64,000 nucleotides of DNA, taken from contig OX597818.1 in the NCBI GenBank assembly GCA_951406725.2, positions 127,038,001-127,102,000 of the forward strand, written 5' to 3'. The notes under the pieces were generated by a model. That model was not told the origin of the DNA. It ran no database searches and saw nothing but the letters and a program-made list of their open reading frames with translations. The stretch is from Octopus vulgaris (taxonomy: Eukaryota). Position numbers and translations under genes: made by a program. How positions within the stretch are numbered: position 1 is the stretch's first letter; every line of letters starts with the position of its first letter. This document shows positions 9,451 to 62,180 of this stretch, one piece after another.

Positions 9451-10137
9451 TATATATATATATATATATATATATATATATATATATATATATATATATA
9501 TATATATATATATATATATATATATATATATGTATATATATATGTATATATATATACAATATGTACTGTATGTATTTATTAGTATATGATAATGTGTTCA
9601 CATGCGTACGTGTCCGACTGTGCTTGTATATGTGCGTCTGTGCATTTATTTGTTAACGTTTTTGCGTATATTGATGAAATGAGGTTTGGATCAGGAAATA
9701 GCAATCTAATATCTCGCGCAGGGAAAAGATAAAGTGTTATCGCCATTCGAAATATATAATCGACTTATCAATCGATATTAGTGATATGGTAATCAATGTT
9801 AAGCAAAGTTTTTAGGAAACACAAACCTTCAATTGTAGCGTAACTATGTAGATATATCAATGTAGATCTGGTGAATTCTGTATTGGAATTTTATAACGTG
9901 GCAAAACGTTATAAATATAATTTGATGGCATAAAGTTGCATGAAAGTAGTGATGACGTACAGTCCAGTTTTCAGCCATTGCAATTATTCATTTTCCCAAA
10001 GGTCGTTGACGCTATCGAATAGGTTCTTCTCTTAAATCATCGGGGTTTACTTTCGAAGTGCCAATTCTAGGACCTCCAGCAATCGTGTACTCATATAGGC
10101 TAAATTTAGGCCACATAATGCATTGGACGTTTTCTAT

Positions 10138-10172
10138 ATTTCTGACGAAGAGCTCCGCTCGAAACGTGAAAT
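10138..10172 (+). ncRNA. Minimal type I hammerhead-like motif (PLE pseudo-LTR type)
   Basis: attt-CTGACGA-a-GAGC-tcc-GCTC-GAAA-CGT-g-aaat. The core is intact, but position 17 is G, which is non-cleavable. Confidence 0.6.
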
Positions 10173-10985
10173 CCTCTTTCTTTTCTTTCCTTTCCTGAGC
10201 GTCCAATAACACTGTACTTATTCCACGGCCTCGCGTTGTTCTTTTTTCTTGCTTGTTCATGTTTGGATTGACTATTAAGAAATATATATATATATATATA
10301 TATATATATATATATATATATATATATATATATATATATATACAAGTATGAATACAAACATATATACACACATATATGTATATATGCGTGCGTATGCGTA
10401 AGTATATATGTATGCTTATATACATATGTATATGTATGTATGTATGTATGTATGTATGTATGCATGTATGCATGTATATATGCATGTATCTATCTATCTA
10501 TCTATCTATCTATCTATCTATATATATATATATATATATATATATATATATATAAAGATAGATAGATAGATAGATACATGCATAAATACATGCATACATG
10601 CATACATACATACATACATACATACATACATACATACATACATACATACATATATATTATATATATATATATATATATATATATATATATATATATATAA
10701 GCATACATATATACATATATATATATTTGTTGAAATAGAAAGATGAATTTTCTTGTTACAGATTATTCAAAAGTTTAACCGATACCTGGGTAGCAAAAAT
10801 CACAGCAGAGAAAAGCACGGTTGGAGATAAGACCATTTGGTGTTGCAACCGTGCGTTGGTGCGGATAATTGAATCACTATATATATATATATATATATAT
10901 ATATATATATATATATATATATATATATATATATATATATATATATATATATATATATATATATATATATATATATACACACACA

Positions 10986-11840
10986 TTAGGCCGAGTAAAA
11001 TGTAAGCAACATTTTGAAACATGAAATCCGTCACAATATATTTCAACAATGCGGAAATTTTATTCATCAAAGTAATTGCCAATGCAATCAATACATTTTT
11101 ACCAACGAGTTACAAGTTTGTTTATTCCGGTAATATACGAATCTTGAGTTCTGGAGCTGATAAACTCTGAATGCACTTTCAGCATCGGTTTGGTTTTTGA
11201 ACACCTTCTGTCTCAGGAAACCAACAAGGTACTTGAAAAAGTGGTAGTCGATAGGAGAAAGGTCTGGGGAATAAACTGAGCGAGAAAGAACTTCATGGCC
11301 AAGTTCCCGCAACTTCTGGAGCGTCATTAGTGAAACGTGTGGGTGAGCATTGTCATGAAGAATTATTGGCCCTCTTTTGGGGACGGAAGAGTAGCAGTTT
11401 TTCATTCATTTTGGCAATTTAATGGCAATTTCATGGCAATATGTTTCTGCAGTAATGATTTTTCCGGGTTTTAAGAATTTATAGTGGAAGCCTCTAGCAG
11501 TACGCCGCCAAACAGTCACCATAACCTTCTTTTTGAAGAGCTCAGGTTTTGGGATGGTTTTCGCTACTTCATTTTGGTCCACCCACTGCGATTATTTTGT
11601 TCAGAATACACTTTTCGTCGCAAGTTACAATACGGTCGAGAAATGAATCGGTCTGGTTACGGAGAAGAAGCGGCGAGTAAATTTCATATCTGCGTATTTT
11701 CCGATTTTCATTGAAATCTTGTGGTACCCATTCGTCGAGCTTTTTAGATTTTCCGATTGCATGCAAATGGTTGCAGGCAGTTTTCTGGCTAACTTGAAGT
11801 TTGTTTGCCAGTTCTCGAGTGGTTTTACGTGAATCTTAAG
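10986..11840 (-). mobile_element. Mariner (DD34D-type) transposase pseudogene
   Basis: Motifs WVPQ, IVTCDEK, LHDNAHPH and YSPDLSPIDYHFF are spread over frameshifted ORFs 11088-11405 and 11569-11766. Confidence 0.9.
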
Positions 11841-12050
11841 GTTCATCATACCACACTTCTTGATACCGAATTCCATCTTAATATCAATACTAAAACGTTG
11901 AACAGTGTTCACCAAGGAACACACTTGTACCTCATCCTTACCATACAGTTTCAAATCATCTATGAAGAGGCAATCGTTGATTTTTTGAGTTTTCCCTTTA
12001 ACTGATGTCCTAGTTTCATTTTCCTCAGTACCAAGGTCAAAATCAACAAT
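11840..12050 (-). mobile_element. R4/Dong-like non-LTR RT fragment
   Basis: Peptide LFIDDLKLYGKDEVQVCSLVNTVQRFSIDIKMEFGIKKC resembles R4/Dong RT motifs 5-6. Confidence 0.7.
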
Positions 12051-12089
12051 ACCAGTTACGTTGTGTAATAAAAATTTTATTTATTTATT

Positions 12090-12530
12090 TATCTTTTTGT
12101 CCTTTGGTCAGTATGTGCTATTCTTCCTAGAATTTAAAGAAAATGACAATTATTCCCTTCAAGCTTTGCTTTTGTGACATGGACATCAATGTTTTGAAAC
12201 TGACTTACTTTCCATTACGTTTCAGATTCAGCGCTGAGTTGCCGAAACAGAAATATCGTTTTAGCAAATACTCTGCACAATATCATGGATTTGCTTGTCA
12301 GTTGCTTGCTCTTATCCACTTGAGCATATTCTCTTATGGCTGACGATATGTGCATCTCGGATCATGAGCAGAGTAGTGGGGGAGCATCATAGACATGTGT
12401 TGAGAGGGATTATTTTGGGTTTCAATAAATGTAACAAAAGCAAAGTTTGAAGGAAATATTACCTAGTTTTCCTACTTTATAGGGGTAAGTAAATAGGAAA
12501 TAATAGTTGCTACCTAAGGACAAAAATCTT
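12090..12530. mobile_element. MITE-like element with imperfect terminal inverted repeats
   Basis: tttttgtcctttggt pairs with acctaaggacaaaaa, and ccttcaagctttgcttttgtgaca (about 12157) pairs with tgtaacaaaagcaaagtttgaagg (about 12430). Confidence 0.55.
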
Positions 12531-59430: not shown

Positions 59431-59779
59431 TGAATGAATGAAATGATTGATAGATGCGTGGTTGGATGACATTAGAAGAGTTGGAAATGAAGGAAAATGT
59501 ATAAGAAAAATGAAAACAAAGAGGCGGATGGATGAGATACGAAACATAAAGGAAGATTTTAGAGGATTTAGAAAATTAAAATAATAATAATAATAATAAT
59601 AATAATAATAATAATAATAATAATAATAATAATAATAATTGACTAGAAAAGAAGAGGGACAGATGGAGGCGGCAGAAGATAATGAAAAGATGCGCCAAAG
59701 GAAAAAGAGCAGTTGTGATGTTGATAATATTGGAGATAATACTGAAGTTGGGAATGAAAGATGGTGATAGGGATGGTGA

Positions 59780-60385
59780 TGTTGCTGATGATGATGATGA
59801 TGAGAATGATGGTGTCGATGACGATGATTATGATGATGATGATGACGATGATGATGATGATGAAGAGGGGGAGGAAGAGGAAGCGGAAGGTGAGGGGCAC
59901 GCTGGTTATGGAAATCTCAGAGACGTTGACTGAGGATGCTGGTGATGTTGATGGCAATGAAGATATTGGTGACAAAGGTGGTGATGATGATGATGATGAT
60001 GATGATGATGACGATGACGAGAGTAACGATGACGATGATAATGATGATGATAATGATGATGATGATGATGATGATGATGATGATGATAATAATGATGATG
60101 ATGATGATGATGATGATTGTGATGATGATGATGATGATGATGATGATGATGATGATGATGATGATGATGATAATGATGATGGTGATGATGATGATGATGA
60201 TGATGATGATGACAATGATGGTAGCAGTGGTGTTGATGATAACGACGATGACGATGATTAAAAATGAAAAGCTTGGAATAGGAAAAGTGAGGCAGTTATT
60301 ATTATTGATGATACTGATGATGATGATGATGATGACGATGACGACGGCGACGATTACTATGATGATGATGATGATGATGATGATG
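59780..60385. repeat. (GAT)n microsatellite region
   Basis: Directly visible. It is the source of the poly-D/M/S ORFs. Confidence 0.97.
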
Positions 60386-61079
60386 GTGCCATGTGAAGGT
60401 GGTCTCGGTGTAGGAAGAGCAGATAAAAAAAGCGAAGGAAGACAACGTTGATGATGATGCTGGTTAGGTTAATGAATTTAATGTTACACTTGTTGATAAA
60501 AGACTCTTCTTTTATTTCTTCCGTTTGATATTGTCGACACCAAAAGTTTTTACAAGTAATAAATATAAACTGGATTTTTTTTTTCTTTTTCCTTCTGTGA
60601 CAGAATAAATGTGTGGTGTCATTTCTAGAATATGATTGAGTAGAGAAGTCTTTGACCGCTTTGAGCGCATCATATAAGCAAATCGATGCTAGCATGCATC
60701 CGTGAAGCTAAATTACTTTGGAAATCACCTTTTCTTTACTTCCCACTCATCCTATCCATTTACTCATCAAACTACTTTTGTATCTAAGCATAAAATACTC
60801 TACATTTCAGGATGGGGGATAAGAAGTGGTAGCATTCATGCCTTTTCTTGTGTTAATGTTGTGGTCGGGGATACGAAAATTAATCCAAAAGGTTAGCCAA
60901 GCCACATCGCGGGCACCATTCGTTACATGACGAAATGTTGATTCAAAATGCCTCACCTAATATTATATATATCTGTGTGTGTGTGCGTGTGTATGTTTGT
61001 GTGTGTGTGTGTGTGTGTATGTTTGTGTGTGCGTCTGTGTGTGTGTGTATATATGTATATATAAAATAAAATATATGCG

Positions 61080-61322
61080 CCCTTTTAAAGCCAAGTCAGG
61101 CTCATGGGCCCGGTTTCCCGGTTTCTATGGCGTATGTGCTCCCCAGCCGTACGGGTCGCCAGTCCATCGCACTGTTACTCATTTTTGCCAGCTGTGTGGA
61201 CTGGAGCAACGTTAAATGAAGTGTTTTGCTCAAGAACACAACGCGTCGCCCGGTCCAGGAATCGAAACCACAGTCTTGCGATCATGATGCTGACACCCTA
61301 ACCACTAAGCCGCGCGCCTCCA
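61080..61322 (-). mobile_element. tRNA-headed SINE (other family)
   Basis: Minus-strand head gtggaggcgcgcggcttagtggttagggtg...gtttcgattcc. Confidence 0.7.
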
Positions 61323-62116
61323 CGCACTCACGTACACACACACACACACACACAAACACACACACATATTTATATATATACAGAGAGAGAGAGAGAGAGA
61401 GAGAAAACAAATAGTGAAGGATTATCAATCCGGACAAAATACTTCATAAATTTTCTGCTGGCTCACCAGGCTAACAATATTCCCTAAATTGAAGAACTCC
61501 AGGTAATCTTTTGGTAGAGTCCCATCTATGGTTCATCACAATTTTATATCGTAAATCCGTAGATGGGCTCCAGATGAACTGTTTTTGTTCTCGTTTTTCT
61601 TTTTTTTTTTTTTTTCACAGAGTGATATATATAAGAAATCAGCTAAAAATAATAGTCCTTACATATAATTCCTTTATTTGAAAAAATTTGGCTTACAACA
61701 GTTTCCAGTAGTCATTATCGGTACATTGTTAATAGCTTTACTCAATTGGTCTATTGGATCAATTGAGACAAATTGAAGATCTAAGAAAATTAATGCTACT
61801 TTCGTTAGAGCCATTTCTGGATATAACAAGCAGAGCACTTGAGGAATTGCGAGTTTGTAGGGAAGGTGGGGGAAGATTGGGATGTTCAAGTAAATTAGAG
61901 AAAGAGAGGTTACAAAGGGGTGGAAGCAAGTAAGGGATTAGTATGGGAGTCACTTAGTAGAAGTAGGGGCACTGAGCCGAATACACTAACCATTACGCAC
62001 GCGCCTTGAATATATATATATATATATATATATATATATATATATTTATATAAAACCTATGGTATAATCATAAACAGGGAAAATTTTAGCCGTTTCTCTG
62101 CAGACTGAAAAAAAAA

Positions 62117-62180
62117 TAATGAACCTTCATTTCGAATCTTACTGGGTTCTCATCAGAGGTGTCTACACCATTCTGACAGT
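62117..62180 (-). ncRNA. Candidate degenerate hammerhead motif
   Basis: Minus strand reads CTGATGA-GAAC-ccagtaag-ATTC-GAAA-TGAAGGTTCAT. The core boxes are intact, but the stem I/III assignment is ambiguous. Confidence 0.4.

Follow-up and report, generated by a model that had tools for sequence, protein, structure and literature searches.

Hammerhead motifs next to (TA)n tracts in Octopus vulgaris: 3' ends of Penelope-like elements and a non-coding retrozyme

Origin of the motifs

The 64,000-nucleotide stretch of the Octopus vulgaris genome considered here (assembly GCA_951406725.2, contig OX597818.1, positions 127,038,001 to 127,102,000; hereafter the window) has a G+C content of 36%, contains 70 (TA)n runs of at least six units and harbors a series of hammerhead-type motifs. 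Very probably, these motifs are the 3'-end hammerheads of several families of Penelope-like elements (PLEs), together with one non-coding retrozyme of 480 bp (family E), all of them likely put into (TA)n by target-primed reverse transcription of the Penelope type. The class as such is already published, including an octopus Hydra element, and mostly represents ordinary PLE biology; the main value of the present case lies in family E and in hammerhead core variants that have become fixed. All genome-wide searches refer to the 2.8-Gb assembly with its around 30 large contigs.

A type I hammerhead descriptor finds seven motifs in the window, compared to a mean of 0.12 and a maximum of 1 in 100 dinucleotide shuffles of the window. 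The descriptor was tuned once the window motifs had been seen; its previous version gave six motifs versus a mean of 0.77 (30 shuffles). The excess over shuffled sequence, which an earlier note on this DNA had named as a check, is thus real. Perfect cores, absent from the shuffles, occur at 18693 (+), 21688 (+) and 47185 (-), and single core changes at 10142 (+; G17), 26705 (+; U4C), 16966 (-; A6U) and 17366 (-; A6C); the motif at 56920 (-) exhibits two. Taken by family, the core CUGANGA/GAAA/UH is exact in C (18693), D and E as well as in F, G and E2, and deviates by one change each in A and B. Judged by their sequence, the window motifs are genuine type I hammerheads, for which self-cleavage is a prediction.

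Families linked to coding elements

The following features belong to families A to D or to the Neptune-type remnant next to one of them:

17090-18366 (-): family C (Hydra-clade PLE), direct arm; truncated thumb/GIY-YIG region with a frame at 17646-18233; hammerhead 17293-17366
17090-17240 (-): 151-nt tail (long end) of this direct arm
18162-18366: internally inverted coding piece within this direct arm
18364-18818 (+): family C, inverted arm, which terminates at the short end; its hammerhead (18693-18766) combines a canonical core with a loop 2 of around 40 nt and a quasi-palindromic helix III
21592-21845 (+): family D, inverted arm with 57-nt tail (21592-21687) and direct arm to the short end
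21688-21721 (+): family D hammerhead, canonical core; 3' end of a coding PLE
10134-10281 (+): family A stub, from the 3' end of a Neptune-type PLE; its minimal hammerhead (10142-10168) has G at position 17; followed by (TA)n
26603-26834 (+): family A stub; minimal hammerhead 26705-26731, U4C core; followed by (TA)n
16841-17034 (-): family B stub, from the 3' end of a Neptune-type PLE; carries a minimal hammerhead (16939-16966, core A6U) and is flanked by TA on either side
56868-57005 (-): family B-like stub whose hammerhead (56920-56947) is decayed; runs antisense to the adjacent open reading frame (ORF); a separate insertion
55226-56867 (+): decayed Neptune-type PLE with reverse transcriptase (RT), thumb, Cys linker and GIY-YIG; its own 3' hammerhead is missing here

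On the evidence of the sequences attached to them, families C and D can firmly be regarded as 5'-truncated 3' ends of coding PLEs. For family C, intact frames of 778 codons exist in the genome, and the window motifs at 17287/18687 lie in sense orientation 3' of GIY-YIG; the link to a coding remnant claimed in the earlier note is correct here. The protein exhibits DKT at 125, RIRW replacing RWK, CxxC at 738 and CxH at 766, and no CCHH; the GIY-YIG match on the window piece has an E-value of 0.0037, and Pfam gave no hit for the frame. Since the CxCx5C linker pattern is absent from this frame, the family is filed as Hydra-like; its motifs were likened by eye to those of Hydra-1_Obim. It comprises two core subfamilies, one canonical and one with U4C. 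In family D, a GIY-YIG-type C-terminus (at most 252 codons, judged by motif) is situated upstream in seven of the nine translated loci, 25 having been fetched.

Families A and B are assigned less firmly to the 3' ends of coding Neptune PLEs. An alignment of 144 nt gives 75-77% identity between the family A stub and the 3' terminus of an intact Neptune-type element; the latter has frames of 883-898 codons in 6.2-kb tandem units and carries the U4C motif on its coding strand in 17/17 copies; all nine of its examined array ends stop at a single position before TA, and no inverted arm was seen at these nine. Family B is contiguous with a Neptune endonuclease in 1 of 25 long copies, and the 3' untranslated region (UTR) of that copy is common to two more; the coding parts in B, like those in D, were identified from motifs and tblastn. 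The Neptune marks, i.e., DKG and the CX2-5CxxC linker between RT and endonuclease, are present both in the intact family and in the window remnant. Of the parsed copies, 26 of 30 in A carry U4C and 35 of 37 in B carry U at position 6. A young intact Neptune-type PLE at C10:97800001-97830000 is organized in 6.2-kb tandem units, with a CA-rich 3' UTR of around 3 kb, dozens of stop-free copies and a 363-codon frame overlapping the start of the main frame. A 28-bp fragment of family B lies between TA runs at 18832-18859 of the window.

Across families A to D, 5' truncation, tandem or inverted arrangement and a tail are all present. Because these families trace to the 3' ends of protein-coding PLEs, their short copies would be 5'-truncated stubs rather than non-autonomous elements.

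Concerning the remnant at 55226-56867, the motif at 56914 had been taken as linked to it, but the two are merely juxtaposed: the motif is on the minus and the ORF on the plus strand, and 24/24 other copies fetched continue at 56867 into a different 3' UTR and 0/24 into the motif, which was therefore rejected as the remnant's own ribozyme. That 3' UTR possesses a hammerhead of its own; among 21 aligned copies, its 3:8 pair reads G:C in 13 and A:U in 6, with no pairing in the remaining 2. With this swap, it would escape standard descriptors.

(TA)n adjacency and the two-end rule

Nine of the ten sites named in the earlier note lie within 200 bp of a (TA)6+ run, compared to 23% of all window positions. 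Among the best hits to the window copies, those copies included, the 3' end abuts TA in 25/30 (A), 26/30 (B), 25/25 (C), 12/20 (F) and 10/14 (G) cases, the background being 3%. For family E, likewise among best hits that include the window copy, 86 of 90 ends abut TA (background 4%); this test was scored with (TA)6, as (TA)4 is confounded at the short ends by TA inside the E unit. The claimed proximity to (TA)n and its enrichment within 200 bp are borne out.

The inverted arms repeat one and the same 3' end in head-to-head orientation; they are 5'-truncated, and their junction differs from copy to copy. The two arms differ by a tail of 57 nt in D, 151 nt in C and around 120 nt in E. By its layout, this is the known PLE insertion footprint of an inverted copy plus tail: an inverted copy, a one-sided tail and a TA bias are described PLE traits (PMC8557442), and in vitro the tail corresponds to the distance between two RT start sites (PMC11167929). 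The idea of a designed fold-back does not hold: the junction shifts between copies, and the 8-bp stem I seen at 21680 is a chance product of the inversion junction. Terminal inverted repeats like those of miniature inverted-repeat transposable elements were also considered for D and rejected, its junction being mobile and its arms unequal.

Two-armed insertions nearly always combine one arm ending at the short and one ending at the long start site. Family E was scored in 53 distinct insertions, 26 in a first set and 27, taken in genome order, in a second. Among its 38 two-armed insertions, 35 are short+long, none short+short or long+long, and three irregular at one end (first set 20/20 short+long; second set 15/18 with the three irregular ones). 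The 15 one-armed insertions end 11 times at the short and four times at the long site; a rule that one-armed copies always use the short site, suggested by 6/6 in the first set, was abandoned with 5 short and 4 long in the second. Short+long pairing is found in 12/12 (read from a table) and 11/11 two-armed loci of C, with one locus in both sets, in 21/23 of D, a set selected by query, and in 14/16 of E2, three of which are counted twice. In the unit, TA-like letters come after each of the two E start sites. Concerning the haplotypes of the two arms in E, 28 of 33 comparisons (15 segregating markers) are concordant, compared to a permutation mean of 8% and maximum of 30%.

The 480-bp retrozyme

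Family E is represented in the window by two entries:

46997-47294 (-): family E retrozyme; a partial, one-armed unit that terminates at the short start site and has a (TA)n run on either side
47145-47192 (-): its type I hammerhead, with 7-bp stem I, canonical core, 4-bp stem II and 4-bp, near-palindromic stem III; cleavage predicted between 47152 and 47151

By its organization, E is a non-coding retrozyme and very young, with predicted self-cleavage; the presence of a retrozyme in the system is thereby confirmed. The best hits are 99-100% identical, distributed over many chromosomes and arranged with a period of 480 bp, each unit containing a hammerhead; arrays reach 30 full units, and 338 exact copies of the hammerhead exist in the genome. 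The monomer from cut to cut folds with z = -7.4 (0/100 shuffles), its ends being joined in stem I. As helix III consists of four pairs and is near-palindromic, the ribozyme could act as a monomer or a dimer. No attached PLE frame was found in the 68 E loci scanned, four hits being separate neighbors.

An older relative, E2, is 73-77% similar, with a unit of around 470 bp and a different hammerhead, in which four pairs are changed on both sides (0/500 shuffles for cells); no frame is attached in 25 loci. Compensatory changes, looked for as a check on the motifs, are thus found here and in the 3:8 pair of the old Neptune element, the controls in both cases being inflated by the relatedness of the copies.

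The E unit is partly covered by contigs from four runs of guessed RNA origin. In one E contig each of two runs (guessed RNA, depth below 5), clustered A>G changes occur (8 and 5 listed), compared to 0 A>G in 106 overlapping genomic alignments, which hints at editing of a double-stranded E transcript. If so, cleavage would be blocked in fold-back transcripts. In one of the runs, the A>G changes fall at hammerhead positions 15.1, 16.2 and 17.

Proposed mechanism and template of family E

The scheme that we infer, with regard to priming chemistry, cleavage, circles and the identity of the driver, runs as follows. Nicks made in TA tracts by a PLE endonuclease would release ends that serve as primers for reverse transcription, which would start at two fixed positions within the RNA, each followed by TA-like microhomology. 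Early termination would leave stubs of 150-450 bp that retain the hammerhead. In events of the Hydra type, extension would take place on both strands of the target, the short site serving one strand and the long site the other, which would yield head-to-head arms that differ by the tail. Transcripts of family E would be multimeric; its own hammerhead would cut them to 480-nt monomers, which would probably be circularized and which a PLE protein would copy in trans into arrays, such that E would be a parasite of the PLE machinery.

Mobilization of E by Penelope-type enzymes is supported by its footprint: since E insertions share the two-start, head-to-head arrangement with PLEs, E was likely copied by a PLE enzyme, and as this footprint matches C and D and not the examined Neptune, a driver of the Hydra type or D type is indicated. 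The earlier suggestion that PLEs mobilize non-autonomous units is accordingly retained for E, on the strength of footprint and haplotypes, but not for the other units, which are mostly PLE stubs.

Several results weigh against the overall interpretation. The E unit shows no DNA similarity to the 3' ends of the three coding families tested; A is tied to a coding frame by similarity, without a full-length A copy; and apart from D, the isolated motifs fold no better than shuffles. One of the 23 D loci was scored long+long, and one two-armed E2 locus is short+short and one unclear. The arms of E are discordant in 5 of the 33 marker comparisons, and over all substitutions, 47 are unshared and 43 shared. 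Furthermore, 85% of the 33,645 A/B-type motifs in the genome have a non-canonical core (A6U, U4C), so that many may be inactive.

As to the template, the E arrays could also stem from linear multimeric transcripts of homogeneous arrays, or from later unequal crossing-over, with no need for circular RNA. One homogeneous source locus would equally yield common haplotypes, and the sharing of haplotypes is in fact explained nearly as well by a linear multimer. Two haplotypes alternate along the C5b array, and sub-blocks are present in the array of 30 units; local expansion is proposed by Li et al. (bioRxiv 10.64898/2026.07.22.740005), and PAc takes uncleaved RNA in vitro (PMC11167929). On the other hand, the E unit folds like described retrozyme circles (PMC7229834), and variants private to one of the first 26 insertions are present in both arms. 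We regard a linear template as a serious contender, if somewhat short of an even chance; its scope is the template of E alone, and mobilization by PLEs would be consistent with it.

In the most far-reaching version of the preferred reading, E would be an active circular-RNA retrozyme that records the PLE mechanism: a PLE dimer would prime both target strands on RNA of one haplotype, always with one strand per start site, and roll round the circle to produce head-to-head arrays in (TA)n; functional hammerheads with U6, C4, G3:C8 or A3:U8 would number in the tens of thousands in the octopus. This combination we put forward tentatively, as possible rather than probable. If true, it would constitute direct genomic evidence that PLE proteins, probably of the Hydra type, mobilize animal retrozymes, and working U6, C4, G3:C8 and A3:U8 cores would have been missed by standard descriptors.

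Core variants

The exact pattern of the A/B type has 33,645 matches in the genome and 0 for the reversed control. By core, these are 18,984 with A6U, 9,312 with U4C, 5,118 canonical and 231 (by subtraction) with both changes. U4C is known from a viroid, where it supports infectivity, and A6C has low activity (PMC3088659); U3-A8 is known from several sources (PMC3088659; PMC4209133). No report of a natural PLE hammerhead with A6U, G3:C8 or A3:U8 was found in the literature listings, the coverage of which did not extend to the dimer-type variants of Lunse et al., which may hold them.

The A/B hammerheads might no longer be ribozymes at all, the fold being kept as a protein-binding or structural element with a drifting core. 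The sheer number of A6U and U4C cores would fit this, as would U4C in every copy of the intact Neptune, the low activity of A6C (PMC3088659) and the fact that PAc insertion in vitro dispenses with cleavage (PMC11167929). Drift is at variance with the rarity of double variants; moreover, the free position 7 takes all four bases among the A6U matches listed, the 3:8 pair remains Watson-Crick through its swap in another family, and U4C supports viroid infectivity. Loss of ribozyme function appears possible rather than probable. The intact, amplifying Neptune with U4C and the around 19,000 A6U copies are natural test cases for whether PLE hammerheads must cut. They imply that censuses based on CUGANGA undercount A/B-type motifs several-fold in this genome.

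Alternative origins of the units

The earlier note viewed all units as independent non-autonomous fold-back retroelements of their own design. Most window copies are indeed 150-450 bp long, without coding sequence and in TA, many B copies stop near one 5' position, and E is non-coding. However, C has intact copies, coding frames are reached in the longer copies of B, C and D, A resembles a Neptune 3' end, and inversion junctions differ per copy, such that only E is clearly non-coding and F possibly so. Contradicted for C and D, this view is very improbable as a whole.

The count of at least eight motifs in at least four families stands in part. Six families (A to F) are confirmed at the named sites; the site at 62117, however, is a decayed copy without helix III of a family (F) with canonical core and palindromic helix III, and the candidate at 18914 was rejected, since it belongs to an old family (around 80%) whose 14 other copies fetched do not keep core and helix III. 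The Rfam scan of the window contains no hammerhead among the matches listed (150 of 186), which are only of a microsatellite-driven microRNA type, and a genome search with RF00163 gave six hits among 73 scored, none similar to E. The families passing RF00163 are unrelated to E, and three of the six hits come from one family with a long insertion. That the motifs are chance matches in AT-rich repeat DNA, as the Rfam scan and the failure of 18914 might suggest, is next to inconceivable given the shuffle control, the genome count of the A/B-type pattern against its reversed control and the covariation in helices, and is already refuted for A to F.

Other repeats in the window

Three further repeat families are present:

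18870-18990 (-): old repeat family H (the 18914 motif), not supported as a hammerhead
19019-19394 (strand not assigned): family G two-armed stub; the family has a hammerhead, the window copy is truncated short of it
62046-62187 (-): family F stub that has lost the hammerhead by deletion; elsewhere in the family this is canonical, with a palindromic helix III

Family F, which forms a tandem of around 304 bp in 2/19 loci, may be an old retrozyme. A second two-armed stub at 47402-47657 is 73-79% like family G, its long hairpin being scored as MIR9563 by Rfam, and a further piece of family H lies at 35118-35210. An interspersed repeat of around 250-300 bp, probably a young short interspersed element, has four copies (20110-20415, 23109-23352, 28908-29161, 34435-34741) with 96-98% identity. 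Remnants of mariner-like transposase and of RT of the long interspersed element (LINE) type are situated at 5852-6394 (-), 38943-40311 (+), 6697-7182 (-), 11625-12080 (-) and 12998-13477 (+). Among the LINE-type remnants, RVT_1 is hit only at 39376-39786; one of the five, without a Pfam hit, we take from its motifs to be the mariner-like transposase.

Comparison with known systems

The motifs closely resemble the minimal hammerheads reported for the pseudo-long terminal repeats (pLTRs) of metazoan PLEs (PMC4209133), which are of type I, with a short palindromic helix III and a bulged base before stem II, and which occur in thousands of mostly single copies from truncated PLEs, some as opposite-strand pairs 100-700 bp apart. 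Unlike those, the dominant families here are fixed for A6U or U4C in the core, and in one family the 3:8 pair has been exchanged for G:C or A:U, whereas U3-A8 alone is described in the available text of that study.

The Hydra and Neptune PLEs, including Hydra-1_Obim of Octopus bimaculoides (PMC8557442), share the C-terminal GIY-YIG, the hammerhead near the 3' end, the (TA)n preference, the 5' truncation, the inverted 5' copy and the tail at a single end. Their tails measure 30-40 nt, compared to 57-151 nt here, where short+long pairing is moreover counted as near-strict; family C differs by the lack of the CxCx5C linker and by its loop 2 of around 40 nt.

Poseidon PAc in vitro (PMC11167929) likewise exhibits two internal RT start sites that set the tail, cutting and extension of both strands, AT-rich targets and a predicted dimer. 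There, however, the two strands showed no difference in start site and priming was non-homologous, whereas here the two arms of an insertion use different sites, with TA-like microhomology at both.

With metazoan non-LTR retrozymes (PMC7229834; bioRxiv 10.64898/2026.07.22.740005), E shares a non-coding, low-GC tandem unit, one type I hammerhead per unit, a highly self-paired monomer and co-existing PLEs. At 480 nt it is slightly above the described 150-450, it is very young, and its insertions show a TA target, two start sites and inverted arms, which are undescribed for retrozymes in the available portions of these works; no sequence match of E to a pLTR was found. An octopus repeat annotation (PMC13282606) reports recently active PLEs, without use of the word ribozyme in the portion available, and the literature listings contain no work that treats a retrozyme of an octopus or a PLE footprint at retrozyme insertions. 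From co-occurrence and pLTR similarity, PLEs are considered strong candidate drivers of retrozymes (PMC7229834; bioRxiv 10.64898/2026.07.22.740005). In the octopus, the driver becomes testable, as the footprint of E is described only for PLEs and the same genome also holds intact young Hydra-like and Neptune frames.

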